63,323 nt of DNA, taken from assembly GCA_038327765.1 (NCBI GenBank), contig JBBQLI010000003.1:1-63323 (forward strand), read 5' to 3'. Made by a program: the position numbers and the translations under genes. The notes below the pieces were generated by a model. That model saw only the letters and a list, made by a program, of their open reading frames with translations, had not been told where the DNA came from and did no database searches. Positions 1,493-48,158 of the stretch are shown here, piece after piece. The DNA comes from Candidatus Limnocylindrales bacterium (lineage in GTDB: Bacteria; Chloroflexota; Limnocylindria; Limnocylindrales; CSP1-4). Every line of letters begins with the position of its first letter. Position 1 is the first letter of the stretch.

Positions 1493-1532
1493 GCGGGAAG
1501 CCGGCGCGACAGTCGGCGCGCCGGCTTCCCGC
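1493..1532. terminator. Perfect 16-bp inverted repeat (hairpin) between convergent genes; candidate bidirectional terminator
   Basis: GCGGGAAGCCGGCGCG (1493-1508), an 8-nt loop, then CGCGCCGGCTTCCCGC (1517-1532). It lies between the MarR stop (1336) and the anti-sigma stop (1548). No U-tract is present, which is common in high-GC genomes. Confidence 0.45.
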
Positions 1533-1547
1533 AAGTCGCCAGGGCCG

Positions 1548-4418: not shown

Positions 4419-4764
4419 AGGGCCGGCGGGGATGGCAGGATCGGCGAACGCCAGCCAGGCCGGGACTGTCACGCTGGCCATTCCTGCCCGGCCTGCTCGG
4501 TGGATGGGTCGTGGATGGCTACCCCTCCCACGCCGACTGATCTGTCGAACCGGAGCGGGGCAGGTCTCATCCCCTCAACGGTGAGTGCCGTCCTCCTCGA
4601 GGCGGGGACACGCGAGGCTCATCCTCGACGCCCTCACGATTGACTCTCGCAAAGTGCCAGCGTAGGCTGCCGCCAATCGGTGAGGTCAACGACGGCGGCG
4701 GCGGAGCGCCGAGCCAGGACCATCGACATGACCTGGACCTGCTCCTCGAAGGAGAGGGCTGCAC

Positions 4765-7700
4765 ATGTGGGTCTGGGGGCGGTTCCCGGTCGGCGTGGCG
4801 TCTATCGTCGTCATCGTCGCCCTGCTTCTCGCCGCCTGCAGCCCGACTCCCGCCCCCACACCTAGCCCAAGCCGTGGCCCGAGCACCCCGCCAGCCTCGC
4901 CCTCGCCCTCGCCGTCGGCCTCGACCCCAGCCCCGGCTTCGGGAGATCTGGCCCTCGAGGCCTGCGATGTCACCGGCTACGTTCCCTGCGAGCACCAGGC
5001 AGTCCGGCTTTCCCTGCCGATCGCCGGTACTGGTGCGGCCCTGACCTATTCGAGCGAATGGGCCGCCGGTCGCAAGGATCGCCAGGGCTGGGATGCCTCG
5101 GCCATCGGTCTTGGGGGCTGGTCGCTGGATATCCTGCAGCGATACGATCCGAAGGCCGGGGTGCTGCTCTCCGGCGACGGGTCGTGGCGGTTCGCGAAGG
5201 GCGTGACCCTGCCCTCGGGCGAGCACGCGGTGCCGACCTACGACGGCCTGATGGCCTACGTGTTCGACTCGAATGGGCGCCACGTGCGCACCGTCGATGC
5301 ACTCCTTGGTGTGACCCTGATCACGTTCTCCTACGACGCGGCCGGCCGGCTCTCCGGGGCAGACGGGACGCTGGCGAGCGCGCCGATCCACCTCGTCGTC
5401 GAGCGCGAGGCTGACGGGACGCTCGCCGGCCTCGTCGGGCTCGACGGGGCCCGGACGTCGCTCTTCCTCGGCAGCGACGGCCTTCTCGGCGGGATCCAGG
5501 ATCCGGCGGGCCGCACTACCGTCCTCGAATACGGGTCCGGCGGCCTTGTCACCAACTACGACGACGCGACAGGAGGTGTGACGGCGTACGGGTATGACGA
5601 CGCCGGTCGTCTGGTCTCCGCGAAGGACCCCGACGGCGTCACGGTGACGACGACCCGCACCACGACCGCCGATATGACCGAGGTCAAGTCGACCACGACC
5701 CTCGGCCGCTCGGTCGCCTACCGTGCGGAGCGAACGGGCGCCGGAGTGATCCGATCCTATGTGGCGCCCGATGGAACCCGGACGACCGTGTCCTCCGATC
5801 CATCTGGGCGGTACGCGGTCGCGCTTCCCGATGGGACGACGATCGCGCTAGGTTCGCAGGCCGACCCGCGCTGGGGGATGGACGCTCCGATCGCGACGCC
5901 GGTGGACCAGACGCGGCCGGATGGCGTCGTCCGGCACACGACCACCGCCATCACTGCGACGACCTCGGCCACCGACCCGCTCGCCGTCAGCGCCTGGTCC
6001 CGTACCGACATCATCGCTGGCGGGACATGGAACCAGATGGTGGACCCCGCCACGCGAACGATCACGTGGGCCGACCCTGCCAGCCGGAAGACCACCCAGA
6101 CGTACGACGCGTCCGGTCGGATGGTCTCGCAGACCAGGCCGGGACAGCCCAGCCTTGCGTTCGTCTACGACGGACACGGCCGGCTTGCCACGAGAACCTT
6201 GGGGAGCGGCGCTGCCACCGCCACGACCACCTTCACCTACGGAACAGACGGCACCCTGACCATCACGGGTCCCGACCAGCTCGTCCAGCATCTGACGGCC
6301 GACTCCGTCGGACAGATCGTCCGCCGGACAGCTGCGGACGGCTCGACGGTCCTGTCCGCGTATGACGGGCTTGGGCGGCTCGTGCGCGTGGCACCCGCTG
6401 GCCAGCCATCCACCACCATCGGCTATAGCGCCGCCGGACGGCAGACCGGGTTCCTGCCTCCGACCATCGGCGCCGATGGCTCCTACGAGGTGCGAACGTA
6501 CGACACGGACGGGAGGTTGGCGGCCATCGCGGGACCTGGTCAGCGCTCGATCGCGTATACGCGCGACGCGGCTGGCCGCATCACCGGCTGGACCTTCGAC
6601 CAGGGCACGGCCACGGCCGTCTACGATCCGACCACAGGACTTGTCGTGAAGACCGCTGCGCCTGGTGGGATCGACACGCTGGTCTCGTACGTGGGCGGGA
6701 TCCGGGTCGGTCGCAACGTGTCCGGCCCGGTCGTCGGCGCGGTGGCCGTGAGCCTCGACCCGTTCGGCCGGATGGCCGGCGTGTCGGTCGATGGGGCGCC
6801 GCCGATCGGCTACACGTACGACACGGTCGGCTACCTCACGAGCGTGGGGGACGTCTCCCTGCAACGCGACCCGGCGAGCGGTCAAGTCGCGGGAGCATCC
6901 CTTGGCACTGGGCGGACCACACGCGAGTACGACGCCCAGGGGCGACCGACGCACATCGTCACAGCCGCGAACGGTTCGTCGGCCATGCTCGACGCTCGCT
7001 ATGCGTACGACCTGCGCGGGCGCGTCACGAGCGTGACCGAGGTGCGCGGCGGCGGCAAACCGACGAACACGACCTACGCATACGACGATGCGGGGCGTCT
7101 GGCCGAGGTCTCCGTGAACGGGATCTCTGTCGAGCGCGACGGCTACGACGCGGCCGGTAACCGCGTTTCCGTGAAGACCTCCTCCGGTACGCTCAAGGCC
7201 ACGTACGACGACCGCGACCGGTTGCTCTCCTGGGGGGCGGCCAGGTACGTCTCTCGGCCGGACGGGCAGCTCGCGAGCGTGGCCGCCGGGGACGCCAACA
7301 CCCGCTTCACGTTCGACGACTTCGGAGTCCTGCGAGCGGTAGCCCTCCCGGACGGGCGGCGGATCGAGTACTTCGTTGACGCGGGGGGCGCGCGGATCGG
7401 GAAGAGGATCGACGGCACGCTCGTGGCGGGCTATCTCTACCGGCCCGACGGTGCCCTTGCGGCGCAGACCGACGGCAGCGGCGCCGTGGTCGCGCGCTTC
7501 GGCTATGACGATGCCGGGCGGCTCACGCTCGTCGAGCGCGGGGGCACGCGCTACCAGGTGGTCACCGATCGCCTCAGCAGTCCGCTCCTCGTCATCGACG
7601 CGGGTACTGGCGCCGTGGCTGAGGCCATCACCTACGATGCTTGGGGCCAAGTCACCTCCGATACGAACCCGGGCTTCATCCCGATCGGTTTCGCCGGCGG

Positions 7701-34256: not shown

Positions 34257-35891
34257 ATCCGTCGCTTCGTCGATCGTGCGCTGTTGGCGCTGCTGGCCAC
34301 CGGGCTCCTGCTCGTCCCGGCAGCCCCGGTCCGCGCCGCGGACCCGCTCCCCGCCGTGCCCGCCGCATGGCCGTCCGACCACCTCGCTCTCGGTCTGGCC
34401 GACGCGCCCGGGGGAGCCGCGGCGCTGGCGTCCTCAGGCGCGTTCACCTTCCGCTACCAGTACCTGGCCGGCGGCGTGAACACGGGCAATGGCTGGTCGA
34501 CGTGGAATGCGAACGGCCAATTCGTCTCGTCCTACATCGCGGATTCGGCGGCCCACGGGCTCACGCCGGTCTTCCCCTATTACATGCTGCTGCAGTCGAC
34601 CCCTTCGGCTGGTGCGTCGGAGGCGACGCGAGACCTCTCGAACCTCCGGAACACCGCGACGATGGCGGCCTGGTATGCCGACCTGAAGCTGTTCTTCCAG
34701 CGCGCAGCGGGCAGCACGACGGTGGTCCTCCACGTGGAGCCCGACCTGTGGGGCTACATCGAGCAGGCGGCCGGGAGCGGCAACGACGCGGGTTCGATCG
34801 CGGCGTCCGTGGCGAGCTCCGGCGTGGCAGCCCTGGCGGGCCTGCCGGACACTGCGGCCGGGTTCGCGCGCGCCATCGTGCGACTGCGTGACCAGAACGC
34901 CCCCAATGTCCTCCTCGCCTACCACCTGTCCGGCTGGGGGACCAACGTTGACATCGGCCTGGCGAACACACCCGATCCTCAGGTCGACGCGCTGGCGGCG
35001 CGGGCCGCGGCGTTCTACGCGTCACTGGGCGCCGGCTTCGATCTCACCTTCACGGACATCGCTGATCGCGATGCGGCCTTCAAGCAGGCGATCTACGGCG
35101 ATGGCGGCGCTTCGTGGTGGGACGACGCGGATTTCGTCCGCTACGCGCGTTTCATCAAGGGCTACGTCGCGGCCAGCGCTCAGCGTGTGGTGGTGTGGCA
35201 GGTCCCCCTCGGCAACACGAAGATGCGGGCCATGGACGACACCTGGGGTCACTACCAGGACGACCGGGTCCAATGGTTCCTCGACGATCCGGGCGGCACG
35301 CACCTTGCGCTGTGGCGCGACGCCGGTGTGATCGCCCTGTTGTTCGGTGGCGGTGCCGGCGGCACGACGTGCGCCTGCGACGCGATCGGTGATGGCATCA
35401 CGGACCCTCCCGCGATCAACGGGAATAGCCAGGCGTCCCTGTCCGCCGATGACGACGGCGGATTCTTCCGCGACCGCGCCGCCGCCTATCACGATGGCGG
35501 CGGCCTGGATCTCGGTGGTGGCGCGCCACCGCCCTACACCCCGCCCCCGACGGTGGCCCCGTTGTCCTGGGCGCGCTCCGCGACGGTCACGCCAGCGTCC
35601 ACGTCGCGCCGCCACACGGTGACGATCAAGGCGCACATCCGGGCATCGAAGACGACCAGGGCGATCGCCGATATCCGCGTCTACGACCGGAACGGGACAC
35701 GCGTCCTGTGGAAGCGCTACCCGGCGTCCACGTTCAGGGCCGGAGTGAGCCGGCTGTTCCGGCCGACGCTGGCGATCGGCACCGGCCGCCGACTGGGCAG
35801 GTACAAGGTGGTCATCCGCATCTACAGCGCGGATGGCAGGCGTCTGCTCTCGATCATGAACCCGGCTACCTGGTTCCACGTCACGAGCTGA
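34257..35891 (+). CDS. Secreted hypothetical protein (possible glycan-active enzyme), probable non-canonical ATC start
   Basis: A clear signal peptide (I)[29 protein letters not shown] has no in-frame ATG/GTG/TTG within ~180 nt upstream (the nearest, a GTG near 34077, is far upstream). An ATC at 34257 lies 7 nt after a perfect GGAGGA (34244-34249). The catalytic family is not recognisable by eye. Confidence 0.6.
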
Positions 35892-35992
35892 GCCAGCGCC
35901 CGAAACGCGGGACCGGGGAAGATGTCCCGGCCCCACGTGATGAGGCGCGACAGCCCGTCGGCCCCGGGGCCGCGCTGCTAGCATCGCCCGAC

Positions 35993-37654
35993 ATGAGCGA
36001 CCCCCGATACGACACCATCGTCGTCGGCGGCGGTTCGGCCGGATCCGCCCTCGCCAACCGCCTTTCGGCAGTGCCATCGAACCGGGTCCTGGTCCTGGAA
36101 GCCGGTCGATCAGACTGGCGCCTCGACCCGTTCATCCACATGCCGGCCGCGCTGACCTTCCCGATCGGCAGCCGCTTCTATGACTGGAAATACGAATCCG
36201 AGCCCGAGCCGTTCATGAACGACCGGCGCATCTACCACGCACGCGGCAAGGTCCTGGGCGGATCATCCAGCATCAACGGGCAGATCTTCCAGCGCGGCAA
36301 TCCGCTTGACTACGAGCGCTGGGCCGCCGATCCCGGGATGGCGTCGTGGGACTACGCGCATTGCCTGCCGTACTTCAAGAAGATGGAGACGTGTCTCGCC
36401 GCAGCCGCGGATGACCCGTGGCGCGGCCACTCGGGTCCGCTCGTCCTCGAACGCGGCCCGGCGACGAACCCGCTCTTTCGCGCATTCTTCGCCGCGGCCC
36501 AGCAGGCCGGCTACCACCTGACCGACGACGTGAACGGCTACCGTCAGGAGGGCTTCGCGCCGTTCGACCGGAACATCCATCGTGGTCGGAGGTTGAGCGC
36601 GGCCCGTGCGTACCTCCACCCGGTGATGGGGCGCCAGAATCTGACGGTGCGGACCCGGACGTTCGTCACGGGGATCGTGTTCGAGGGTGGCCGGGCGGTC
36701 GGCGTGGAGGTCGCGAAGGGTCGCGGCGCTGTGGAGCGGATCCTGGCCGGCGAGGTGATCCTGGCCGGCGGCGCGATCAACTCCCCGCAGCTGCTGCAAC
36801 TCTCCGGGGTCGGAAAGGCCGCGGACCTGCGGGCCCTTGGCATCCCCGTTGTGCGCGATCTGCCCGGCGTCGGCGATCACCTGCAGGACCACCTCGAGGT
36901 CTATATCCAGTACAAGAGCCTGCAGCCGGTCTCGATGCAGCCGACCGCGGTGCAGAAATGGCGACGGCCGTTCATCGGTGCGCAATGGTTGTTCCTGCGC
37001 AGCGGCCCCGGCGCGACGAACCATTTCGAAGGCGGCGGGTTCGCCCGCAGCAACGATGACGTCGCCTACCCGAACCTCATGTTCCACTTCCTGCCGCTGG
37101 CCATCCGGTATGACGGCACCGCTGGCGCCCCAGGGCATGGCTACCAGGTGCACATCGGGCCGATGTATTCCGACTCGCGCGGGTCGATCCGCCTGACCAG
37201 CACCGATCCTCGGATCCACCCTGCGCTGCGCTTCAACTACCTCTCGACCGACCAGGACCGGCGCGAATGGGTGGAGGCGATCAGGGTTGCGCGGACCATC
37301 CTGGGCCAGGCGGCGTTCGGGCCGTACAACGGCGGCGAAACCTCCCCGGGCCTGTCGGTCGAGACCGATGAGGAGATCCTCGATTGGGTGCGGCGAGACG
37401 CCGAGACCGCGCTCCATCCGTCGTGCACGGCCCGGATGGGGATCGACGACGGCTCCGTCATCGATCCGTTGACGATGCGTGTCCACGGGCTGGACGGGCT
37501 TCGCGTGGTGGATGCCTCCGCGATGCCCTACGTCACGAACGGCAACATCTACGCGCCCGTCATGATGCTCGCCGAGAAGGCCGCCGACCTGATCCTCGGG
37601 AACACGCCGCTCCCCGCGGAGTCCATCCCGTTCTACCGGCACCAGCCGGGCTGA
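35993..37654 (+). CDS. GMC-family FAD oxidoreductase (choline dehydrogenase-like)
   Basis: N-terminus [20 protein letters not shown] (FAD GxGxxG). GMC signatures: [18 protein letters not shown] and [16 protein letters not shown]-terminal HPSCTARMG active-site region. Confidence 0.9.
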
Positions 37655-37706
37655 GCGGGGTTCGAGGGCACTCAGGCCCGGCGACCCCGGCGCGCATGGT
37701 GGCAGC

Positions 37707-39239
37707 CTATCGCGGCCGAGCGAGCGGTTCGCATCCGCCCGCTTCGCGAGGCGTCACCCGCATGACCGTCCGGGTGACGGTCGCCGTCGGCCCGCCGAAG
37801 GCGACGCGCACATCGAGGAATGGCTCGACCGTGAAGGCGGCACGAGTCGCCTCCAGCGCCGAGTCCCTGAGCCGCAGGATGAAGACCGGCCGTTCGCAGA
37901 TCAGCGCCTTGATCCGACGCTCTCGCGTGCCCCAGCCCTCGAAGACGACATTCGTGTCGTCGACGACGAGGATGTCAGGCCGCTGACCAAGGATGAGCTG
38001 GGCATGCCACAAGGGCGTCGAGACGTCCCACTCGGTCAGGACGGCAGCATCCACCGGCAGCGCTGCGAACATCGCCGCGATATACGCCTCGGCTCCGCGG
38101 TCGAGGCTCCGATCCGCCGCGTGCCAGTTGACCCCCCAGAGCCCCGCGGCCATGACCAGCGCGATGCCCGGGACCAGGAGCTGCGCGACCCGTGGCCGGC
38201 GCAGGCCGGGGAGACACGCCAGCCCGCAGGCCAGCCGCTCGAGCGCGAACCCCGCACCGATCGCGAGGATCAGCCAGGGCACCAGCAGGTAGTGGTCGAG
38301 GCGCAGGTAGTTCGCCCACACGTACAGCCCGGTCGACAGGATGGCCACCGCCATCACGCCGAATGCCGGTCGCCGCCAGACGAGCAGCGCGAGACCGACC
38401 AGGCCAAGGAGCGGCATGACCACGGTCGCCTGCGTCACGAGGAGTGTCCAGAGAGCGGGCAGCGACGCGACGAGTTCGCCGGGTCCCGCGGACGTGAAGA
38501 AGTCGAACTGGCCCCGGAACTGAGTCCCGCTGACCAGCCACCACCACGACTCGGCCGTGACCGGATGGTTGTAGGCGAGCGGCGGCGCGTGCGAAGCCGC
38601 GATAGGGATGTAAACGTAGACGGTCAGGCCGAGCAGGACCGCGCCGACGGTCGCCAGGACGACCCTCGGCATCGCCATGATCTGGCGGCGGCCGGTCCAG
38701 GCGACGAACAGGACGATGAACGGAGCCGCGAACAGGATAAGCAGGTGGTTGCCGAGCGCCAGCCCGAGGAGCAGACCACCAAGGACAAGGTCGATCGGGG
38801 CCTTGCGGGTCTCCCAGATCAGCGCGCGATGGATCAGCAGGGAGACCGCCAGGAGGTGGAGAGCGTTGACTTCGGCGACGGTGGCCGACGACCACACCGT
38901 CCCGACCGCTCCCAGCGCGAGCGATGTGGCGAGCGCGAGCGTCGCTCGGACGCCGAGGCGCGTCAGGATCGCGCAGGTCACCGCCACGCTGAGGGCGACG
39001 AAGATCGCGGAGAGCAGGTTCGCCCGGAACGCGAGCGATCCCACCGTGACGAACTGCGCCGCCCATGCCATCAGGATGTACGAGGGATACCCCGTCGGGT
39101 GGGCCACACCGAGGACGTACGGGACGGTCTGCATCTCACCGGAGTCGCCGAACGCGATCCCGGGCAGCAAGGTGATGAGGTATGCCGCGAATGAGGCAAG
39201 ACCGGCGATCACCGGTAGCAGGCGTCCAGGCCATCGCAT
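37707..39239 (-). CDS. DUF2723/TMEM260-like GT-C-fold membrane glycosyltransferase candidate
   Basis: N-terminal motif FGDSGEMQTVPYVLGVAHPTGYPSY is typical of DUF2723. At least 10 TM helices followed by a soluble C-terminal domain. The ATG at 39239 (MRWPGRLLPV) is preferred; the ORF-track start is 39293. Confidence 0.72.
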   Translation of the reverse strand: MRWPGRLLPVIAGLASFAAYLITLLPGIAFGDSGEMQTVPYVLGVAHPTGYPSYILMAWAAQFVTVGSLAFRANLLSAIFVALSVAVTCAILTRLGVRATLALATSLALGAVGTVWSSATVAEVNALHLLAVSLLIHRALIWETRKAPIDLVLGGLLLGLALGNHLLILFAAPFIVLFVAWTGRRQIMAMPRVVLATVGAVLLGLTVYVYIPIAASHAPPLAYNHPVTAESWWWLVSGTQFRGQFDFFTSAGPGELVASLPALWTLLVTQATVVMPLLGLVGLALLVWRRPAFGVMAVAILSTGLYVWANYLRLDHYLLVPWLILAIGAGFALERLACGLACLPGLRRPRVAQLLVPGIALVMAAGLWGVNWHAADRSLDRGAEAYIAAMFAALPVDAAVLTEWDVSTPLWHAQLILGQRPDILVVDDTNVVFEGWGTRERRIKALICERPVFILRLRDSALEATRAAFTVEPFLDVRVAFGGPTATVTRTVMRVTPREAGGCEPLARPR

Positions 39240-39331
39240 GGAGCGCGCGTGGTCAGGGTACGTCGTCACGCTCCACTGACCGGGCAGGCACACGTCACGC
39301 GCCTGTCACCGGTCTCCGCTACCGTGAGCAG

Positions 39332-40891
39332 GTGGTCCCAACGACGACCCTTCCGGCTCGAGGGGGAGGGGACGATCCACTGGTCGCGAGGGCGGGAGGA
39401 CCCTCCCGTCCGCATCCGGACTGGCCGCTGTCCCTCGCCATCACCGTCGGCGTGCTCGCGACGTACTGGACTGCCATCCTGCTGGTCGGACGGGTGGATG
39501 CACTGCAGGCGCCCCCATACGATCTCGCGTTCTTCCAGCAGATCGTCTGGAACGTCGGGCGCGATGGGCGCTGGGTCTCGGACTTTCATCAGGGGTCCTT
39601 CCTGGGACTGCACTTCTCGCTGATCCTCGTGGTCCCAGCGCTGATCGAGCGGCTGCTCTGGTCGGATGTCCGCGTCCTGAGTCTTATCCATGCTGCGACC
39701 GTCGGCGCGTTCGTGCCCGCGACCTTCCTGTTCCTTCGCGCCGGCTTGCGACCGAGCCGCGCGGCCGGACCGATCGCCGCGGCGCTGGCGGTGGGTCTTC
39801 CAGTCTGGGGGGCGATGCAGGATCTGATCCGCTCGGACTTCCACCCCGAGGTCACAGGCGTCGTCCTGGCGCTCTTCGCGGGCTGGGCCGGTCTCACCGG
39901 ACGCCCGCGGGCATGCTGGGCGTTCGCCGTGGTGGCTCTCCTGACCCGCGAGGATCTGGCCTTCGGCATGCTGGTGATCGGGCTGGTGATCGCCATCCGC
40001 GCTCCCCGCCGGATGCGACTGCATGGGCGGGCACTTGTCGGCGTCGCGAGCGCGTGGGGCGTCATCGTCTTCGGTCTCCTCATGCCCCTGCTGCGTGCCG
40101 GCGCTGCAAACGAGACGTCGTCGTACTACGCGTGGCTCGGGGGCGGGCTGAACGTCCTTGCGGCCCCGTTCACCATGACCGGCGCCGTGTTCGCCGCCTT
40201 GACCCGTCCGGCGCCGTGGTTCGTGTTTGCCGGGATGGTCGCGTCACTGGCCGGGCTGCCGCTCCTTCGGCCGCGCTGGGCCGCCGTGGTCATCCCGCCG
40301 CTGGTCGCGCTCCTGTTGTCGCGGAATTCGTTCCAGGCTGCGCTGCTCCTCCAGTACCCCGTGATCCTGATCGTGCCCTTGCTGACCGCGACCCTCTTCG
40401 GCGGCCGGCGAGCCCTGTGGTTCGTTCTGTGGGCGCGACGGAGACGCCGCCGCCGCGCTCACCCCCATCTCCGTCCGGCGATCGTCGCCCTGGTCGGGCT
40501 GTTGGCGATCCCGGCGATCGCGGGCGCCTGGATCCAGGGCTCCCTGCCGCCGTTCGATGGAAGCGATCCAGCGTTTCGAGCCGCCCCTGGCGCCATCGAA
40601 CGGCTCAGGGCCGTGGCCGGGGCCGTGCCCGGATCGGCGATCCTCGTGACGGATGAGGGGCTGGTCGCCCCGCTGGCCGGACGGATCGCGATCCGCAGCC
40701 TGGCATCCGTGCTGGACCCGTCGCCGGATGCGTTCGTGCTGCTCGACCGAAACGCCTGGTCGCCGACCGTTCCCGTCGCTCTCCTCCACGACCGAGTCGA
40801 CAGCAAACTGGCGTCCGGCCTTCGCCCGGTCCTGGCCGACGACGGCCGGTTCGTCCTGTGGGGACCGGAACCAGGTGGTCGGGCACCCTGA
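39332..40891 (+). CDS. DUF2079-like polytopic membrane protein
   Basis: The motif APPYDLAFFQQIVWNVGRDGRWVSDFHQGSFLGLHFSLILV matches my memory of DUF2079. At least 10 TM helices. The GTG at 39332 is tentative; it was chosen to avoid overlap with the divergent gene. Confidence 0.65.
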   Translation: MVPTTTLPARGGGDDPLVARAGGPSRPHPDWPLSLAITVGVLATYWTAILLVGRVDALQAPPYDLAFFQQIVWNVGRDGRWVSDFHQGSFLGLHFSLILVVPALIERLLWSDVRVLSLIHAATVGAFVPATFLFLRAGLRPSRAAGPIAAALAVGLPVWGAMQDLIRSDFHPEVTGVVLALFAGWAGLTGRPRACWAFAVVALLTREDLAFGMLVIGLVIAIRAPRRMRLHGRALVGVASAWGVIVFGLLMPLLRAGAANETSSYYAWLGGGLNVLAAPFTMTGAVFAALTRPAPWFVFAGMVASLAGLPLLRPRWAAVVIPPLVALLLSRNSFQAALLLQYPVILIVPLLTATLFGGRRALWFVLWARRRRRRRAHPHLRPAIVALVGLLAIPAIAGAWIQGSLPPFDGSDPAFRAAPGAIERLRAVAGAVPGSAILVTDEGLVAPLAGRIAIRSLASVLDPSPDAFVLLDRNAWSPTVPVALLHDRVDSKLASGLRPVLADDGRFVLWGPEPGGRAP

Positions 40892-40894
40892 TGG

Positions 40895-42373
40895 TCATCG
40901 ATCGGATGCGCGTTCCTCGGCAGCCGCGGGCGCCAGGTCTTCGCGGAGGATGGCGTCATGATCCGCGAGCCAGGCCGTGAGGTGCGGGGCATAGCGGCCG
41001 TCACTCGCGAGGTCGGTGGCCATGACACGCAGGTCGCCGATGGTGTCGAGGTCCGTCCAGGACGCCAGGTTGGTGACCGTCCAGCCGGCTGAGGCAAGGG
41101 CCCCTTTCGTCGCGAGGAACACCGTCGAGCTGCCCATCGAGACACCGAACGCCGCCCGAAGGCGCCGGGCAAGGTGTGCGCGACGCCGCCGACGGATCGC
41201 TCTCGGCCACCATCGGCCAGCCCCGCGCCAGCGGAGGGCGACCAGGTGGTACCCGCCATCGTCGCTCGGACCCAGAACGGCGCTCGCGCTCTGCCGCGAC
41301 AGGTGGTCAAGGGCTGCCAGGAGATAGGCGGGTGGCAGGGACGGCACATCGCCGGCCACGGCGATGGCGCGATCGGCGCCGCGATCGCAGGCTTCGAGGA
41401 AGACCTCCTCAAGCGCAGCAGCCAGACCCTGCTGGCGTTGGACGACCGGTGCCCAGCGCTCACCGATGATCGCGCTGACCGGGGTCCGGTCGGACGACTC
41501 GGCCAGCATGACGACCGGATCCATCCGGCCGATGGTGGCCGCCTCCAGCAGGTTGGTCGACGAATCCCTGAGGCAGGCCGCCCAGAATCCCGATGTCAGA
41601 TCGGCACCCAGATCCGCCTCCAGACGCGTCTTCGCGTGACCGCTGCGTGGCGCCTTGGCCATCAGGGCGACCACCGGGCGAGGGCGCGTGGCCTGGAGCG
41701 CGACGCGGATCATGGCGTAGGCGGCAAGGATCGAGGCGCGCGGGGAGCCCGACACCTTGCTGGTGCCCCCATGCCGACGCCGAAAGCCGACCGGGACCTC
41801 CCGAACACGCAGCCGGCGATCGGACAGGGCACGAGCGACAAGCTGGACCGTCCAGCCATAGCCGGCCTCGTCGAGCCCGAGCCGCACCAGTGCCTCTGCC
41901 CGGAGCGCCTTGGCGGGTGGAAGGTCGTGCACCCGACGCCCGGTCCGGAGCGACAGGATGAGCGCCACCAATCGGTTGCCCCATCGAGCGTGCCACGGCA
42001 TCGCGCCGCCTTCGACCAGACTGGCGAGTCGGCGGCCCAGGGCCACATCGGCGCCCGCCAGTGAATCCACGAGCGATCTGATCGAGCCCGCGTCGCACGA
42101 GCCGTCTCCATCCAGGAAGGCGACGATGGCGTGTGGGTGGGGGAGCGGATCGACGGCCAGGGCACCGCCCGTCAGACAGGCACGGCCGTATCCGCGGCGT
42201 GGCTCGTCGATGACGATCGCCCCGGCCATGGCCGCTTCAGCGGGTGTCCCATCCGCCGAACCCCCGTCCACGACGAAGACACAGCAGGCTCCAGCTTCAC
42301 GGAGTCCCCGGACGAGCGCTCCGACCGCCTCACGCTCATCGATCACCGGGATGACAGCGGCAAAGGACATCAA
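40895..42373 (-). CDS. Fusion protein: N-terminal GT2 glycosyltransferase plus C-terminal DUF2064 (CofC-like nucleotidyltransferase fold) domain
   Basis: GT2 N-terminus: AAVIPVIDEREAVGALV...VFVVDGGSADGT...DGDGS. The second half, VALMAKAPRSGHAKTRLEADLG...AACLRD...IAVAGDVPSLP, is DUF2064-like. Confidence 0.78.
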   Translation of the reverse strand: MMSFAAVIPVIDEREAVGALVRGLREAGACCVFVVDGGSADGTPAEAAMAGAIVIDEPRRGYGRACLTGGALAVDPLPHPHAIVAFLDGDGSCDAGSIRSLVDSLAGADVALGRRLASLVEGGAMPWHARWGNRLVALILSLRTGRRVHDLPPAKALRAEALVRLGLDEAGYGWTVQLVARALSDRRLRVREVPVGFRRRHGGTSKVSGSPRASILAAYAMIRVALQATRPRPVVALMAKAPRSGHAKTRLEADLGADLTSGFWAACLRDSSTNLLEAATIGRMDPVVMLAESSDRTPVSAIIGERWAPVVQRQQGLAAALEEVFLEACDRGADRAIAVAGDVPSLPPAYLLAALDHLSRQSASAVLGPSDDGGYHLVALRWRGAGRWWPRAIRRRRRAHLARRLRAAFGVSMGSSTVFLATKGALASAGWTVTNLASWTDLDTIGDLRVMATDLASDGRYAPHLTAWLADHDAILREDLAPAAAEERASDR

Positions 42374-42380
42374 CGGACGA

Positions 42381-43421
42381 TCACTGGATCGCGGCTTGTC
42401 CGGCGCGCCGCTCGATCGAGGTCAGCAAGGGCCGGTCGCCGGCACGGTAGCGGGCGGCCATGCCGCGGGCGGCGTCACGGATGGCGTCCTCCGCCGGCAT
42501 GGCGGGGGCCCACCCGAGACCTCGCATCGCACTCGTGTCGAAATCGACCAGGGCGGTATCACCGGGCCACCCGCCACCAGATGGCCCCTGGGAGCGAAAC
42601 GCGAAGTCCACGGACCCGGCCTCGAAGCCGAGCGCATCGACCACGACCTCGGCGACCCGACGGACGCTGACCGTCCCTTCGGGCCCGACGTTGAGGATGG
42701 TCTGACCGGGCTCCGTGACGACGGATGCCGCATGACGCATGCCGGTCACGAGATCGGCCACCGCGACATAGGGCTTTGCCGGCGTCCCGTCGCCAAGGAT
42801 CTCCAGGCGGGCCGGGTCGCGAGCCAGCTTGACCACGAAGTCATGGACGACGCCGTGGTTGGAGCGTGGGCCCACGGTATTGCCGAATCGGAAGGCGAAG
42901 GTGCGCCACCCGTAGAGCTGGGCGAACCCGGACACGATGGCTTCGCCAGCCAGCTTGGCGGCCGCGTAGTGGGATCCAGGGAACAGTGGACCGTCGCCCT
43001 CGGCCACGGGGACCCTTGCCTGTCGGCCATAGACGACGCCTGATGACGCGTACCAGAGCTCCCTCACGGCCAACCGATGCATCGCCTCGCACACGACCTC
43101 GGTCGCCACGATCCCATTGCGAAAGTCCAGGCCAGGGCGATCGAAACCCCCGGCGATGTCCGTTCCCGACGCGAGGTGGATCACTCGATCATGCCCGGCC
43201 ATGGCCCTCCTGACGGTATCCGGATCAGCGCAATCGCCCTCGATGAAGGTCAGCCCGCCCGCCTCGGCGAACCGCTCCGCCCAGTCTGGTTCGGCCGTCG
43301 AGAGGTCATCGAGGACGGTGACCCCGCCCCCGCCGCGCCGCTGGGTGTCAACGAGCTCCCCGCCGATGATGCCGGCGCCACCGGTGACCAGGGTCCGGGC
43401 GGGCGGGAGGGCGACCCTCAT
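42381..43421 (-). CDS. NAD-dependent sugar epimerase/dehydratase (extended SDR)
   Basis: Rossmann motif TLVTGGAGIIGGELV and catalytic YAAAK. The ATG at 43421 overlaps the DoxX stop (ATGA). Confidence 0.88.
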   Translation of the reverse strand: MRVALPPARTLVTGGAGIIGGELVDTQRRGGGGVTVLDDLSTAEPDWAERFAEAGGLTFIEGDCADPDTVRRAMAGHDRVIHLASGTDIAGGFDRPGLDFRNGIVATEVVCEAMHRLAVRELWYASSGVVYGRQARVPVAEGDGPLFPGSHYAAAKLAGEAIVSGFAQLYGWRTFAFRFGNTVGPRSNHGVVHDFVVKLARDPARLEILGDGTPAKPYVAVADLVTGMRHAASVVTEPGQTILNVGPEGTVSVRRVAEVVVDALGFEAGSVDFAFRSQGPSGGGWPGDTALVDFDTSAMRGLGWAPAMPAEDAIRDAARGMAARYRAGDRPLLTSIERRAGQAAIQ

Positions 43422-43975
43422 CCCGGCCAGCGCGCGCGCCTTGCCGCGAACCGGGCATCCAGGCCGTGCCAACGCCCGGCCCGGAATGCCGCGAGACACA
43501 AGAGCGGCAGCCACTCGACCGAATATTCATAGACCCACTTGTCGTTCCAGAGGGTGGCGAACTGGAGGTGGAGGACCATCGCGGCCGCGATGAGCGCGGC
43601 GATCGGTGTCAGGAATCCGATGATCAGCAGGATCCCGACCAGCGTCTCGGTCGCCCCGACGGCGAACCCGAAGGCCCCGAAATTCGGCAGGATGACGTTC
43701 TCGACCAGGGCGCGGTACGGGGCGATCGGGTGATGCTGGGTGACGACCTCGTAGCGCAGGATCGACTCGGCGCTTCGATTCCCGACCGCGTTGATGACGA
43801 ACCCGATCGGGGTATCGGGCCACAGGTTCGGGACGGCCGGCAACACCTTGGCGAGGCCGTTGTGGAGGAAGACGATCCCGAAGAACGCACGCAGTGCGAC
43901 CATCGCCCGTCCGAACCATGGACCCTGGGCGATCGACGTCACGTCGGTCAGCGGTGGTCCCGTCATCGTGCTCAT
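43418..43975 (-). CDS. DoxX-family membrane protein
   Basis: Four TM helices with a DoxX-like pattern (ALRAFFGIVFLHNGLAKV...GATETLVGILLIIGFLTPIAALIAAAMVL). Confidence 0.78.
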   Translation of the reverse strand: MSTMTGPPLTDVTSIAQGPWFGRAMVALRAFFGIVFLHNGLAKVLPAVPNLWPDTPIGFVINAVGNRSAESILRYEVVTQHHPIAPYRALVENVILPNFGAFGFAVGATETLVGILLIIGFLTPIAALIAAAMVLHLQFATLWNDKWVYEYSVEWLPLLCLAAFRAGRWHGLDARFAARRARWPG

Positions 43976-44127
43976 GGAGGGGCCCCTTTTGTTGTTGGCG
44001 CGCCTGCTGCCTGGATGTTGCTTGGTTGTGACCCTAGCGGCGGCCGGTGACGGCGGGATGACACGTCGTCATCGGAATGTCATCGGCATACTGCGCGCAA
44101 CCGTCATCCTGCGGTTCGCGGGATCCG

Positions 44128-44802
44128 ATGATGCGGAGGGCTATGGAGCCGATGGAGACGCACCCGTCCAGCAACGAATGGGACTGGATCTACGCGACAC
44201 GCGAGATGGACGCGGTGGGCTGGTATGAGCCAGACCCGGTGACGTCGCGTGAACTCGTGGCCGAGGCCATGGCACAGGGCAGGCGGAGCATCATCGATAT
44301 CGGTGGCGGCGCCTCGCGACTCGTGGATCACCTCGTCGACCTCGACCTCGACCGGATCGCGGTCCTCGATATCTCCGAAGCCGGGCTGGCGTTCTCGCGG
44401 CATCGGCTGGGCACTCGCGAGCAGGGTGTCGAGTGGATCGTGGGCGATGTTTCGACCGTGGACGACGTCGGGGTGTTCGACATCTGGCACGACCGTGCGG
44501 CGTTCCACTTCCTCCTCGACGAGGCCTCCCGACGACGCTACGTCCGGCTGGCCGAACGAACCGTCCGGGTCGGTGGCGTGGCGATCGTGGCGACGTTCGC
44601 CGACGATGGGCCCGAGCGCTGCAGCGGGATGCCGGTGCTGCGATACACCCCAGGGGAGCTGGCTGCGGAGTGTGGCGATGGGTTCCGGCTGATGGGCAGT
44701 CGACGGTATCTCCATCACACCCCGGCTGGCGTCCCGCAGCGGTTCCAGTACTCCATCCTCGAACGAGTCATGCCAGACGCAGGACCGAGTGCCGGCTCCT
44801 AG
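44128..44802 (+). CDS. Class I SAM-dependent methyltransferase
   Basis: Motif I IIDIGGGASRLVDHL, the post-I acidic residue VLDIS, and motif II/III VFDIWHDRAAFHFL...GGVAIVATF. The start is uncertain (44077 to 44152). Confidence 0.8.
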   Translation: MMRRAMEPMETHPSSNEWDWIYATREMDAVGWYEPDPVTSRELVAEAMAQGRRSIIDIGGGASRLVDHLVDLDLDRIAVLDISEAGLAFSRHRLGTREQGVEWIVGDVSTVDDVGVFDIWHDRAAFHFLLDEASRRRYVRLAERTVRVGGVAIVATFADDGPERCSGMPVLRYTPGELAAECGDGFRLMGSRRYLHHTPAGVPQRFQYSILERVMPDAGPSAGS

Positions 44803-45943
44803 CGCCGCGACCAACTATGGCGGCAGCCGCGCGCTGCCGGTCCATGCCGATGTGGAAGACCCGCAGGCCGACCTTGAGTCAGGGTTGCTGATCCGGATCC
44901 ATCTCGCGCTGCTGGATCTGACGGAAGGCCAGATCCTTCGGGTTTCGAGCCCGGTGCCTGCGGTCGCCGATCAGCTTCGATCGTTCGAAGGGGCAAGCGG
45001 ACACGCGATCCTCTCGGTCATCCCGGATGCCGAGCGGTCCGGGTGGACCTCCTTCTACCTGCGCAAGGGTCGCGCCAGGACCGACTGGTCGGACGCGGCG
45101 AGCGACGACCGCCCGCCCGCCGAGGCCTCCGGCCCCAGCGATGGTCCGTCCATCGAGGCGTTGATGCCGACGCGCCTGTGGATGTACACGAACTACGACT
45201 GCAACCTGGCCTGCGACTACTGCTGCGTCGTCTCGGGTCCGCGCGCCGACCCGCGCCGGCTGCCCGTCGGACGGATCCGCTCGCTGGTCGATGAAGCCGT
45301 GGCATCGGGCATGCGCGAGGTGTTCCTGACGGGCGGTGAACCCACCCTCCGCCCAGACCTCCCCGACCTCATCGAATACGTGACGGACCGCCTCCCGATG
45401 ACCCTCCTGACGAATGCGATGCTGCTGCGTGGCCCGCGCTGGGAACGCCTTCGGCCGCTGGTCGAGGCGGGTCGACCGGTCGCATTCCAGGTCAGCCTCG
45501 ATTCGGCATCGCCCGAGCGTCACGATGCGCACCGCGGGCGTGGCGCGCACGCTGGAGCCCTGGCGGGGATCCGCACGCTCGTGGAGGCCGGGGCACGGGT
45601 TCGTCTGGCCGCTTCCTTGCCGGAGGCGGCCCTGGCCGAGATCCCGGACCTCCATCGCCTGGCCGACACCTTCGCGATCCGCGCCGAGGACCGCATCTTC
45701 CGGCCGATCGCCCTGCGCGGCGCCGCATCGGAGGGCGAGCCGATCCGACCCCAGGATGTCGCGCCCGAACTGACCTGCGACGCGCAGGGCTGGTTCTGGC
45801 ACCCGCTATCGAACGACGCGGACATGCGCCTTGATCTTCCGCCGGACGCGTCGATGGCCGAGGCGCTCGTCGCGGTGCGTCACCGGTTGAGCGAGATGCT
45901 CTCGACGCGATCCGCCAGGCTCGATCGATTCGTCTGCGGCTGA
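44789..45943 (+). CDS. Radical SAM enzyme with an N-terminal Cys-less TusA/SirA-like domain
   Basis: CNLACDYCC (CxxxCxxC) cluster motif and GGEPTL SAM-binding motif. The N-terminal ~100 aa (LLIRIHLALLDLTEGQILRVSSPVPAVADQLRSFEGASGHAILSV...SFYLRKG) resembles TusA but lacks the CPxP cysteine. It overlaps the upstream methyltransferase by 14 nt. Confidence 0.78.
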   Translation: MPAPSAATNYGGSRALPVHADVEDPQADLESGLLIRIHLALLDLTEGQILRVSSPVPAVADQLRSFEGASGHAILSVIPDAERSGWTSFYLRKGRARTDWSDAASDDRPPAEASGPSDGPSIEALMPTRLWMYTNYDCNLACDYCCVVSGPRADPRRLPVGRIRSLVDEAVASGMREVFLTGGEPTLRPDLPDLIEYVTDRLPMTLLTNAMLLRGPRWERLRPLVEAGRPVAFQVSLDSASPERHDAHRGRGAHAGALAGIRTLVEAGARVRLAASLPEAALAEIPDLHRLADTFAIRAEDRIFRPIALRGAASEGEPIRPQDVAPELTCDAQGWFWHPLSNDADMRLDLPPDASMAEALVAVRHRLSEMLSTRSARLDRFVCG

Positions 45944-45981
45944 TGACGTCCGTGGGTGGAGCTGGACTCTCCGGCTGACCG

Positions 45982-47763
45982 TTACGGATCCTGTGACAGG
46001 ATGACCACGCTGTACGGCCCCACCGCGAGGAGTGCGCTCTGCGCCTGGCCATCGAGAGGTTCGCCGTCGGCTTCGGTGTCGAGCGCCTCGTGATCGCCGA
46101 AGTCGGACGCGTAGACCGGGGCATCGCTGTTGAGCCGGACCCGCCAGCGACCGCCAGCCGGGAGACCGATGCGCAGGTCGTCGATCGTCCGATCCGCAAG
46201 ATTCACGATCACGACTACGTCGTCGCCAGGCCCGCCCTCGTGCCAGCGATGGAAGACGAGGATCTTCGCCTCGTCGTCGGCGCGGAGGATGGCCAGACCC
46301 TCGCCGCGCAGACCCCGGCTCAGGCCGTCACCGCCACGACGGAGCGCGATCAAGTCGCGATGCAGGCGGAGGATCCCCTTGTGGGTGCTTGCCTTCGACC
46401 AGTCGAGCGCGACCGTGTCATCGAACCAGCGGTCCTCGAGCAGCTCCTGACCCTGGAAGAGCATCGGGATGCCGGGTGACGTGAGCACGAGCGCGCTCCC
46501 CAGCGTGGCCCGCTTCTTCGCCCACCAGCTGTCGGCGTCACCCGGGGTGATCGCCTCGGGGACGCGGGTGTCGCCGTTGGCGACGTCGTCATGCGACTCG
46601 GTGTAGATGACCCGCGTGAAGGCAGGTCCGCGACCTTCGCCGGAGATCGCGATCACCATCTCGCCGATATCCCGGCCCGCGTCATCGGCTGCGGTGATGG
46701 CCGCGCGCACCCGGTAGATGAACCCGGGATCCCATTGCGCCCCGAACCCGGCGCCGCCGTCTGCGGTCGGCGTGGCGATCGCACCGTCCTCGCGCATGTC
46801 CTCGGCGATGGTCAACTTCCACGGCTGTCGGGCGTGGATCTCGTCGTTCATCCAGGCCATGAGCGACCAGCCATCGGGAAGGGCCTCGGCCATGTTCGAG
46901 GTGTCCCCGTCCGTGGTCCGGATGTAGACCGTGGCATCGAACCGAAGCCCGTCACACCGGAACTCCTCGAGCCAGGTGAGCGCGCTGTCGCGCAGGAACG
47001 TGCGGACCTCGCCGCGACCGTAGTCGGGACGGGTGGCCCCCCACGGGGTCATCGCCCGGTCATCGTTGTAGACGTAAATCCCGCCGCCATCGCCTTCGCT
47101 CCAGCCATCGAACCGCCACAGGTCCAGGTCCGACGGGCCGAGGTGGTTGTAGACGACGTCCACGATGACGGCGATGCCCAGCGCGTGGGCGGCCGTGATG
47201 AACCGTTTGAACGCGTCCGGCCCGCCATAGCCGGACTCGACCGCGAAGAGGTGCGCCGGGTTGTAGCCCCACGAGATGTCGCCCGCGAATTCGAACGGCG
47301 GCATGACCTGGACCGCGCTGATGCCCAGGTCGTGCAGGTACGGCAGCTGGCGGATGGCCCGATCGAAATCGCCGCGACGGTCGCCTTTGGCCGCGAACGT
47401 CCCGACATGGAGTTCGTAGATCACGAGGTCGTCCCAGGACGGCATCTCGAACGACTCGTCGCCCCAGTCGAAGGCGGCGGGATCGTAGACGACTGCGTTG
47501 CCGACCGAGTTGGTCACCTGGCGGGCGTACGGGTCCAGGCGCGACAGGTCGCCCTCCGTCGTTCGGATCGTGTATCGGTACTCCGCTCCCGGCTCCACGT
47601 CGGCGATGTCCGCGGACCACGTGCCATGCGACCCGTCGCCGTCCGGGGCCAGCTCATGCCGGTCGCCGGCCCAGTCGTCGAACGATCCGGTCACGAAGAC
47701 GGCCGTGGCGTGCGGAGCCCAGACCCGGAACGTCGTCCCGCCGCGATACGGCAGGGCGCCCAT
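45982..47763 (-). CDS. GH13 alpha-glucan branching enzyme-like protein (CBM48 + alpha-amylase catalytic domain)
   Basis: CBM48-like N-terminus TTFRVWAPHATAVFVTGSFDDW. GH13 regions VIVDVVYNHLGP, GLRFDAT, IAEDM and YTESHDD. The ATG at 47763 avoids overlap with the upstream gene. Confidence 0.86.
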   Translation of the reverse strand: MGALPYRGGTTFRVWAPHATAVFVTGSFDDWAGDRHELAPDGDGSHGTWSADIADVEPGAEYRYTIRTTEGDLSRLDPYARQVTNSVGNAVVYDPAAFDWGDESFEMPSWDDLVIYELHVGTFAAKGDRRGDFDRAIRQLPYLHDLGISAVQVMPPFEFAGDISWGYNPAHLFAVESGYGGPDAFKRFITAAHALGIAVIVDVVYNHLGPSDLDLWRFDGWSEGDGGGIYVYNDDRAMTPWGATRPDYGRGEVRTFLRDSALTWLEEFRCDGLRFDATVYIRTTDGDTSNMAEALPDGWSLMAWMNDEIHARQPWKLTIAEDMREDGAIATPTADGGAGFGAQWDPGFIYRVRAAITAADDAGRDIGEMVIAISGEGRGPAFTRVIYTESHDDVANGDTRVPEAITPGDADSWWAKKRATLGSALVLTSPGIPMLFQGQELLEDRWFDDTVALDWSKASTHKGILRLHRDLIALRRGGDGLSRGLRGEGLAILRADDEAKILVFHRWHEGGPGDDVVVIVNLADRTIDDLRIGLPAGGRWRVRLNSDAPVYASDFGDHEALDTEADGEPLDGQAQSALLAVGPYSVVILSQDP

Positions 47764-47792
47764 CCCCGCCTGTGCCGACGGAGCCCGGACGG

Positions 47793-48158
47793 TCACTTCG
47801 CAGGCAGGGCGCTGGTGTGTGCGATGGCCCGCCGGATCCACTGGTCGAGTGCCAGGTCATCGTCGACAACGATGGGTGGCAGCACGGCGTAGCCACTCAT
47901 CGGCCGACCAGGCATCGGCTCGAACCGGCCTGCATCCGGAAGCAGCAGCGCCTCGGCCAGGTCTGCGGGCGCCAGCCGGATCACCCACCGATCGGAGAAC
48001 AGGCTGGTCGTGAGGTTCCCGCCGACGAACAGCGCGGGATAGCCGAACATCTGGCGGCGGATTGCCTCCGGGTAGCGCGTCGCCACCTCGTCGAAGCGGG
48101 CGATCAGGGCCACGGGCGATCTGGGCATCGGCGGCATGGGCTGGACTCCTGGCGGCAT
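47793..48158 (-). CDS. TfoX N-terminal-domain-like small protein
   Basis: RQMFGYPALFVGGNLTTSLFSDRWVIRL resembles the TfoX_N core. Start uncertain (48128 to 48158). Confidence 0.55.
   Translation of the reverse strand: MPPGVQPMPPMPRSPVALIARFDEVATRYPEAIRRQMFGYPALFVGGNLTTSLFSDRWVIRLAPADLAEALLLPDAGRFEPMPGRPMSGYAVLPPIVVDDDLALDQWIRRAIAHTSALPAK

Follow-up and report, generated by a model that had tools for sequence, protein, structure and literature searches.

Positions 37,707 to 45,943 of contig JBBQLI010000003.1 from a Candidatus Limnocylindrales bacterium raise the question of what is made by a methyltransferase, an enzyme of the radical S-adenosylmethionine (SAM) type, a sugar epimerase, membrane proteins of the DoxX, DUF2079 and DUF2723 families, and a fusion of a family 2 glycosyltransferase (GT2) with DUF2064, all encoded side by side. 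The stretch of DNA analysed, the first 63,323 nucleotides of this contig with a G+C content of ~69%, is referred to as the window. The nearest relatives of the window carry annotations as Chloroflexota, from Limnocylindria/Limnocylindrales groups, and one sediment metagenome run contains the window DNA almost complete. A preliminary description of the sequence had listed seven genes as one cluster, and a Pfam search recovered all seven open reading frames (ORFs) with the named domains at the coordinates reported there. Six of the seven, encoding the methyltransferase, radical SAM enzyme, DoxX, epimerase of short-chain dehydrogenase/reductase (SDR) type, DUF2079 protein and GT2–DUF2064 fusion, are a conserved unit. 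Its most likely role is to assemble an uncommon sugar, probably derived from adenosine, on a lipid carrier and to fix this sugar to the cell envelope.

Proteins 55–72% identical to the fusion were followed to their metagenomic contigs, and the unit was recognised in nine loci besides the window. All six genes occur together in the window and in loci L003, L004, L086, L087, L088, L089 and L090, and L005 holds five of them, with the methyltransferase missing. The genes flanking the six-gene set vary among the loci that carry it, hence the unit is kept as such, and it belongs to sediment and soil Chloroflexota. In L088 all genes of the set run in one direction as a single operon, stop and start overlapping by 4 nt at four of the five junctions, and gaps between the six genes are ≤10 bp within each transcription unit. 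Two independent gene fusions were also observed: protein P0078 from L089 is a GT2–DUF2064–methyltransferase fusion, the last domain of which is 74% identical to the window methyltransferase, and P0283 from L090 joins the epimerase to DUF2079. A rough count of co-occurrence among the best 120 homologues each of the fusion, radical SAM and DUF2079 proteins placed fusion and radical SAM genes together on 23 contigs, fusion and DUF2079 genes on 45, and all three on 15. Chance adjacency of unrelated genes, to which the absence of synteny in other genomes would have pointed, was therefore rejected on the grounds of synteny and fused genes. Only the differing orientations of the window genes speak for such an accident, but the set persists amid different flanks, as a single operon in L088, with its fusions and with the common operator described below, leaving it a practically negligible probability. 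With the gene set syntenic in many loci and the promoter repeats kept in orthologous promoters, the adjacency is functional.

The seventh gene, encoding a DUF2723/TMEM260-like protein of the GT-C class of membrane glycosyltransferases (37707..39239, minus strand, ORF to 39293; PF11028, E = 1.9e-21), lies outside this unit. A homologue adjoins the cluster in L086 only and is absent from L003, L004, L005, L087 and L088; as it accompanies the set in the window and L086 alone, it is regarded as accessory, and the seven-gene cluster originally proposed is thus reduced to six. The 508-aa homologue in L086 suggests that its start is probably the ATG at 39239, and the protein has ~12 hydrophobic segments.

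Within the unit, the DUF2079 gene (39452..40891, plus strand, ORF from 39182) is followed on the minus strand by the fusion gene (40895..42373; 492 aa), the epimerase gene (42381..43421, ORF to 43514) and the DoxX gene (43418..43975), and on the plus strand by the methyltransferase gene (44152..44802, ORF from 44077; 216 aa) and the radical SAM gene (44789..45943). The tight coupling noted from the sequence was borne out at every junction: TCAT at 43418–43421 is the minus-strand ATGA in which the DoxX stop meets the epimerase start, 7 bp (42374–42380) separate the epimerase stop from the TTG start of the fusion gene, and the last 14 nt of the methyltransferase gene (44789–44802) also belong to the radical SAM gene. 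An in-frame ATG lies 3 nt inside the TTG start of the fusion gene, and its use would widen that gap to 10 bp. The methyltransferase most likely starts at the ATG at 44152, because its homologues and its fused form align from Met26 onward only; called homologues are 213–220 aa long. Alignment with the called product P0243 (479 aa) places the DUF2079 start near 39452. The convergent DUF2079 and fusion genes end 3 bp apart (40891–40895), which leaves no space for a terminator. Outside the cluster, a GMC oxidoreductase (35708–37654, plus strand) and an alpha-amylase-family enzyme with CBM48 (GlgX/TreZ-like; 45982–47841, minus strand) are its neighbours in the window and are not conserved beside it elsewhere. 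Among the other loci, a rhodanese-domain gene lies directly upstream of the methyltransferase–radical SAM pair in L004 (4410–4850) and L090 (194–652), two loci from one sample. A pairing of DoxX with the rhodanese SseA is known in Mycobacterium tuberculosis, and these genes may echo it and hint at sulfur chemistry. A putative gene at 7316–8671 (minus strand) of L004 was dropped as the antisense shadow of an epimerase.

The methyltransferase start at 44152 places the two GTCATCGG repeats of the divergent promoter region (44068–44075 and 44079–44086, as first described) in intergenic sequence. Both repeats fall within a conserved operator of 11-bp period, GTCAY-N6-GTCAY, copies of which precede every transcription unit of the cluster; the attention originally drawn to these repeats was well placed. 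One copy, GTCACGCGCCTGTCAC, lies at 39294..39309 on the plus strand between the divergent DUF2723 and DUF2079 genes, a second, GTCATCCCGCCGTCAC, is oriented toward the DoxX operon on the minus strand (44047..44062), and plus-strand copies GTCATCGGAATGTCAT, with a third half-site CCGTCATC (44102–44109), point toward the methyltransferase–radical SAM pair (44068..44108); these last copies are conserved in seven loci. The inverted repeat noted in the same region is present, with GATGAC (44057–44062) facing GTCATC (44068–44073); it reflects two oppositely oriented operator copies side by side. Indeed, in all loci with the divergent layout (the window, L003, L086 and L087), one copy faces the methyltransferase–radical SAM genes and an opposite-strand copy faces the DoxX operon. 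The co-directional operons of L088, L004 and L090 have tandem copies upstream of the methyltransferase, with an extra copy upstream of DoxX in L004 and L090. The operator also precedes DUF2079 in the window (39294), L003 and L087, and an Rv1679-like gene in L005. Exact matches to GTCAY-N6-GTCAY number 24 in 916 kb of window and locus sequence, and ~20 of them are at these promoter positions.

Pho boxes have a layout like that of MtrA sites, and the operator layout would fit an OmpR/PhoB-family response regulator of MtrA or PhoP type. MtrA sites consist of two direct repeats of 5–6 nt, 5 nt apart (PMC5650626); the operator is built in this way, but its half-site sequence differs. No regulator gene is conserved near the cluster. 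An Rfam scan of 37000–46500 (E up to 1) returned no match and thus gave no sign of a riboswitch between the divergent genes. A further operator copy, GTCACGAAATCGTCAT, was seen at 4353–4368 of L089, inside the GT2–DUF2064–methyltransferase fusion gene and ~84 nt before the methyltransferase domain, where it could be a relic of the pre-fusion promoter or an internal promoter.

The fusion protein has two parts. Its GT2 half (PF00535, residues 7–161, 45.7 bits) contains an invariant FLDGDGS (DxD) motif, and its profile matches dolichol-phosphate mannose synthase (DPMS, 5MLZ; query positions 3–212) and ArnC over the whole domain. In NCBIfam this half is nearest to AglJ (89 bits), dolichyl-phosphate hexose transferase, PpgS and ArnC, all of which load a sugar onto polyprenyl phosphate. 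By similarity to DPMS, ArnC and AglJ, it is predicted to be a polyprenyl-phosphate sugar synthase. The DUF2064 half (PF09837, residues 277–381, 58.5 bits against a gathering threshold of 25.8) has an invariant AKAPxxGxxKTRL motif, and its family profile matches PDB entry 3CGX (E = 1.6e-27) and, more weakly, CofC and MobA-like families; it looks like a CofC/MobA-type nucleotidyltransferase. Fusions with either GT2 or DUF2064 at the N-terminus exist, as do separate, adjacent genes for the two.

The NCBIfam names of TIGR04282 and TIGR04283 associate these families with arsenosugars, and the preliminary description had linked the fusion to both. The fusion does match both models, each below its cutoff: TIGR04282 at 92.2 bits over residues 236–381 (E = 3.3e-26, cutoff 134) and TIGR04283 at 27.4 bits over the first ~100 residues only (cutoff 182). 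It is therefore no bona fide member of either family; a distant fused relative, in L015, does pass TIGR04282 at 153 bits. A true arsenosugar or arsenolipid pathway, in which an ArsM-like methyltransferase acts on arsenite, an ArsS-like radical SAM enzyme follows and the transferases build the conjugates, would account for the TIGR04282 match of the DUF2064 half, for the TIGR04282 name ("arsenosugar biosynthesis glycosyltransferase") that a 41%-identical fusion bears at NCBI, and for the methyltransferase–radical SAM pair, which parallels ArsM–ArsS. The radical SAM enzyme, however, matches the ArsS model TIGR04167 over its core only, with 46.1 bits against a cutoff of 300, so that all three models fall short, and no ars genes were present among the flanking genes scanned in the window and related loci. 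The methyltransferase, moreover, keeps one of two cysteines in the homologue compared, where ArsM has several catalytic cysteines, and the combination of GT-C and polyprenyl phosphate points to an envelope glycan. An arsenic-specific pathway was rejected as highly improbable.

The radical SAM enzyme (PF04055) is not of the ArsS type with which it had first been compared, and is instead closest to the Rv1681 (MoeX) family of M. tuberculosis. It scores 280.5 bits with NF049973 (E = 1.4e-83), below the cutoff of 380, and the alignment covers positions 66–325 of the 326 in the model, leaving the N-terminal 121 residues unmatched; we treat it as a sister subfamily of Rv1681. A single CxxxCxxC motif is evident and there is no SPASM domain. 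The fold neighbours are BlsE, SkfB, DesII, MoaA, viperin and AbmM, many of which act on nucleotides or nucleotide sugars. The N-terminal ~100 aa are conserved, contain no conserved cysteine and have a predicted beta-alpha-beta-alpha-beta-beta topology. The description of this domain as TusA-like was given up, as a profile of 14 N-terminal domains retrieved no TusA/SirA structure from the PDB at E up to 10, and only the predicted topology is compatible with it; nor does the domain have a counterpart of the conserved CPxP cysteine of TusA. The only role for Rv1681/MoeX found in the literature is that of a diagnostic antigen. The partner methyltransferase is a class I SAM-dependent enzyme (PF08241/PF13649) with weak PDB relatives, limited to uncharacterised Methanosarcina methyltransferases.

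At the membrane, the DUF2079 protein is predicted to be a glycosyltransferase of the GT-C fold that uses a lipid-phosphate-sugar donor. HMM searches matched both PF11028 (DUF2723) and PF09852 (DUF2079), the latter at 98.2 bits against a gathering threshold of 28.2 (E = 7.7e-28). A sequence search of DUF2079 against the PDB gave no match; its AlphaFold2 model (pLDDT 89, pTM 0.90), in contrast, has almost exclusively GT-C proteins among its top 25 fold matches there, with ArnT first (E = 3.6e-06, TM-score 0.50), followed by STT3, AftA, AglB, PglB, DPY19, ALG9, EmbC and PimE. In the alignment Asp24 is invariant, within a conserved YDLAFFQQ motif just past the first transmembrane helix. NCBIfam holds no family matching DUF2079 or DUF2723, and no useful information on DUF2064, DUF2079, PF09837 or TIGR04282 was retrieved from the literature. 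The DoxX/DoxD protein (PF07681/PF04173) has several hydrophobic segments and could be a lipid-linked sugar flippase or a redox partner. The epimerase (PF01370, E = 1e-38, 133.6 bits) is a GalE-like extended SDR, NAD-dependent, with TGGAGIIG (TGxxGxxG) and YAAAK (YxxxK) motifs; GalE is its best NCBIfam match, and it scores under every NCBIfam equivalog cutoff.

More distant relatives of the fusion place the unit within a larger group of cassettes. A search of genome contigs with the fusion protein found two loci, both in Dormibacterota, and a metagenome scan found 80 further loci with fusion proteins 28–48% identical to that of the window. In a census of 85 loci with GT2 and DUF2064 (L001–L085; neighbours within 7 kb), a GT-C gene was present in 62, belonging to the GT87 family (PF09594) more often than to DUF2079, and DoxX in 61. 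Where at least 4 kb was available on both sides (n = 20), GT-C and DoxX were each present in 16 loci and a radical SAM gene in 17. Many loci have a radical SAM module consisting of a 277-aa methyltransferase and a SPASM-type enzyme. In L001, L002, L005, L060, L071 and L079, a trio of Rv1679 acyl-CoA dehydrogenase (ACAD), Rv1680 substrate-binding-protein-like (SBP-like) and Rv1681 genes stands beside DoxX, GT2, DUF2064 and GT-C. The group to which the window belongs has the methyltransferase with the Rv1681-like enzyme, and tblastn detected no Rv1679-family ACAD or Rv1680-family SBP-like gene in the window. Given these variable radical SAM partners, one module (DoxX, GT2, DUF2064 and GT-C) has repeatedly been combined with different radical SAM modules, and the association of the GT2/DUF2064 pair with a methyltransferase and a radical SAM enzyme, at first only proposed, is real and widespread across loci. 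A search of 1.84 billion cluster representatives yielded 142 clusters at E up to 1e-30, including reverse-order DUF2064–GT2 fusions and GT2–DUF2064–GT2 proteins, two of which lie beside a GT-C and a radical SAM gene; among cluster-member names, Dehalococcoidia and Chloroflexota are represented and actinobacteria are not.

Phosphorylases of the PNP_UDP family were detected in seven distant cassettes. In L091, a gene like MTAP and methylthioinosine phosphorylases (TIGR01694 at 223 bits; NF006599 at 218.6 bits, cutoff 223) shares 4 nt with the end of the DUF2064–GT2 gene and is followed by an amidohydrolase gene like 5'-deoxyadenosine and 5'-methylthioadenosine (MTA) deaminases. This reverse-order cassette (458–3268) also contains an ADP-ribosylglycohydrolase gene, a second methyltransferase gene and a gene, which may be truncated, for a protein like B12-binding radical SAM methylases; it represents another variant of the sugar-forming module.

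Several other features of the distant cassettes were recorded. GT2 and DUF2064 share one frame with a single TAA between them in L008 (10706), L009 (10697), L010 (4589) and L019 (10706), which are acidobacteria-like cassettes with TonB-type outer-membrane genes nearby; selenocysteine between the two domains was dropped as an explanation as the in-frame stop is TAA, and the two are separate adjacent genes. Just downstream of the GT87 GT-C gene, distant cassettes encode a secreted protein of ~246 aa (L015, 11841–12581) with a signal peptide, no Pfam or NCBIfam match and homologues in about 31–34 loci, which may be an acceptor or periplasmic partner. The Dormibacterota loci L001 and L002 (e.g. 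3940–5025 and 7741–8238 of L002) each have both a SPASM-type and an Rv1681-like radical SAM gene, together with an AhpD/CMD-family protein that weakly resembles TIGR04169, "arsenosugar-associated peroxidase-like" (30 bits against 120).

Some of these observations would also suit a pathway to a small molecule or cofactor bearing sugar and methyl groups, along the lines of mycofactocin or F420, in which the radical SAM enzyme and GT2 resemble MftC and MftF, DUF2064 resembles CofC, a methyltransferase takes part, and the envelope is not modified. Mycofactocin maturase (71 bits) is the second-best NCBIfam match of the window radical SAM enzyme after Rv1681, the curators' labels for TIGR04283 and TIGR04282 are "mftF-like" and "cofC-like", and related cassettes have SPASM-type enzymes. 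Such a product is nevertheless very unlikely in view of the GT-C enzymes, with an active site facing outside the cytoplasm, beside GT2/DUF2064 in 62 of 85 loci, the tight packing of the six genes, and the lack of a SPASM domain in the Rv1681-like enzyme.

Taken as a whole, the unit suggests the following pathway for an envelope sugar. The CofC-like DUF2064 domain, judged by its fold and motifs, would activate a sugar-1-phosphate with a nucleotide (step 1), and the fused GT2 domain would move the sugar onto polyprenyl phosphate (step 2). The GalE-like epimerase would then invert one centre of the sugar, possibly in its lipid-linked form (step 3); it is placed here because of the epimerase–DUF2079 fusion and the ORF13 precedent. 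The lipid-linked sugar would cross the membrane, for which DoxX is a speculative candidate flippase (step 4), and DUF2079 would transfer it to an envelope acceptor outside the cytoplasm, an activity suggested by its GT-C fold (step 5), while the accessory DUF2723 protein may serve a second acceptor in this genome. The methyltransferase and the Rv1681-like radical SAM enzyme would supply or tailor the sugar precursor (step 6). We are confident of the general lipid-linked glycosylation logic of the cluster.

The nature of the sugar is more speculative. It may be a 5-deoxy-5-substituted pentofuranose derived from a 5'-substituted 5'-deoxyadenosine, with methylthioxylose (MTX) and arsenosugars as precedents, and the methyltransferase and radical SAM enzyme may make the nucleoside precursor instead of tailoring a conventional sugar. 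MTAP-like phosphorylases, together with MTA/5'-deoxyadenosine deaminases, convert 5'-substituted adenosines to 5-substituted ribose-1-phosphates, which are plausible substrates of a CofC-like nucleotidyltransferase. The complete statement, i.e. lipid-linked extracytoplasmic glycosylation with an adenosine-derived 5-deoxy-5-substituted pentofuranose, is put forward tentatively, with somewhat less than an even chance of being right in full. The preliminary description had called the product of the cluster unpredictable from known pathways. This is not wholly so, as the cluster follows the logic of lipid-linked pentofuranose systems, with the MTX pathway as its closest analogue.

Several points weigh against an adenosine-derived sugar. 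Neither a phosphorylase nor a nucleosidase is encoded in the window cluster, the synthases most like the GT2 half handle hexoses, and the epimerase might simply be a common UDP-hexose 4-epimerase. We know of no Rv1681-family member with a known reaction, and BlsE, DesII, viperin and MoaA abstract hydrogen from nucleotide-linked substrates and do not adenosylate; with its nearest solved relatives being hydrogen-abstracting, a tailoring role of the radical SAM enzyme is therefore favoured. With MTA as precursor, there would be no need for the radical SAM enzyme and methyltransferase. The role of DoxX is a guess, and so far as the MTX genes are concerned, the assignments of Rv0540 to DUF2064 and of Rv0541c to DUF2079 are presumed.

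The same lipid-linked GT-C pathway could accordingly carry a conventional nucleoside diphosphate (NDP) sugar, a hexose or uronic acid, with no adenosine-derived precursor. The radical SAM enzyme would then dehydrate, decarboxylate, epimerise or deoxygenate the sugar, as DesII, BlsE and viperin suggest, and the methyltransferase would O- or C-methylate it. Among enzymes of solved structure, those nearest to the radical SAM enzyme (BlsE, DesII, viperin, MoaA and AbmM) do use nucleotide-linked sugars or nucleotides, and the hexose-type synthases nearest to the GT2 half, the GalE match of the epimerase and the lack of a phosphorylase in the window cluster all agree with this. We regard a conventional sugar as somewhat unlikely. 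It leaves unexplained the recurrent MTAP/PNP-type phosphorylases and the 5'-deoxyadenosine-deaminase-like gene in GT2 and DUF2064 cassettes, a CofC-like DUF2064 would be unusual as a standard sugar-1-phosphate nucleotidyltransferase, and 5'-substituted adenosines are the starting point in the two contexts in which these families have been described (PMC11127046, PMC13598754). In the MTX pathway the initial donor is MTA (PMC11127046), and ArsS adenosylates DMAs(III) to 5'-deoxy-5'-dimethylarsinoyladenosine (PMC13598754).

Extended beyond the window, the preference for an adenosine-derived sugar leads to a broader scheme, in which cassettes of GT2, DUF2064, DoxX and GT-C would be a widespread and so far undescribed means of decorating envelopes with adenosine-derived sugars, and an interchangeable radical SAM module, in the window the methyltransferase with the Rv1681-like enzyme, would make the 5'-modified 5'-deoxyadenosine. 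The modified nucleoside would be converted to a sugar-1-phosphate, activated by DUF2064, moved by GT2 to polyprenyl phosphate, flipped by DoxX and transferred by GT-C. We think this generalisation unlikely as it stands. If it is true, MTX capping and arsenosugar synthesis are two special cases of one scheme, and the orphan Rv1679–Rv1681 (MoeX) cassette of M. tuberculosis is another of its sugar-forming modules.

The cluster is worth following up because it offers testable roles for several uncharacterised families, namely four whose function no experiment has established: DUF2064, DUF2079, DoxX as it occurs here and the radical SAM enzymes of the Rv1681/MoeX family. The M. tuberculosis Rv1679–Rv1681 cassette gains a glycosylation context, and one precursor logic is suggested for the two known DUF2064/GT2 contexts, MTX and arsenosugars. 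Through its common operator the cluster can be recognised as a regulon, which offers a way to find the regulator and the inducing signal. A recent paper on pentofuranose glycosylation left open whether processes other than lipoarabinomannan assembly involve MTX-type modification (PMC11127046), and the cassettes described here suggest that MTX-type logic is frequent among uncultured phyla of soil and sediment.

Among known systems, the arsenosugar cassettes (ArsS with TIGR04282 and TIGR04283) share with the window a CofC-like DUF2064 and a GT2 accompanied by a radical SAM enzyme and a methyltransferase. They differ in the radical SAM enzyme, which in the window is of another family, with all three models below cutoff, and the window adds GT-C, DoxX and the epimerase. 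The M. tuberculosis cassette Rv1679 (fadE16)–Rv1680–Rv1681 (moeX; NF049984, NF049985 and NF049973), the function of which is to our knowledge established in no organism, shares the match to the radical SAM core, whereas the window enzyme scores below the cutoff and has another N-terminal domain, and a methyltransferase replaces the ACAD and SBP-like genes.

The three-component system for pentofuranose side chains of Citrobacter youngae O1/O2 (GT136), like GtrA/GtrB/Gtr* and ArnC/ArnT, shares an arrangement in which a synthase of lipid-phosphate sugars works with a small flippase in the membrane and a GT-C enzyme. The Citrobacter system also has an auxiliary GalE-like SDR epimerase that converts undecaprenyl-phosphate-ribofuranose to the xylofuranose form on the lipid (PMC11127046), by analogy a precedent for the window epimerase and for its fusion to a GT-C. 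In contrast, the window synthase is a GT2 with a nucleotidyltransferase domain and not a phosphoribosyl pyrophosphate (PRPP)-dependent UbiA-type enzyme, its GT-C is DUF2079 and not GT136, and its candidate flippase is DoxX and not a MATE, GtrA or SMR protein; a radical SAM enzyme and a methyltransferase are added.

The closest described analogue is the mycobacterial MTX capping of lipoarabinomannan, rather than an arsenic-specific pathway. Rv0539 is presumably a GT2-family protein, Rv0536 a GalE-like epimerase and Rv0535 an MTA phosphorylase; if our assumptions on these and the other Rv genes are correct, four MTX gene families match the window. In M. tuberculosis the sugar synthase MtxS (Rv0539) makes decaprenyl-phosphate-MTX and the GT-C enzyme MtxT (Rv0541c) transfers the MTX (PMC12088412, PMC8780516, PMC11127046). 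The likeness thus lies in a synthase that makes a polyprenyl-phosphate-modified pentofuranose, a GT-C that transfers it outside the cytoplasm, and a precursor, MTA, that is an adenosine metabolite. The window differs in its fused GT2 and DUF2064 and in the obligatory partners of the pair, which are a methyltransferase, an Rv1681-like radical SAM enzyme and DoxX; its cluster contains no phosphorylase, and the host is a member of the Chloroflexota, without lipoarabinomannan. Set against these systems, the cluster represents lipid-linked, GT-C-dependent glycosylation in a new combination of genes.

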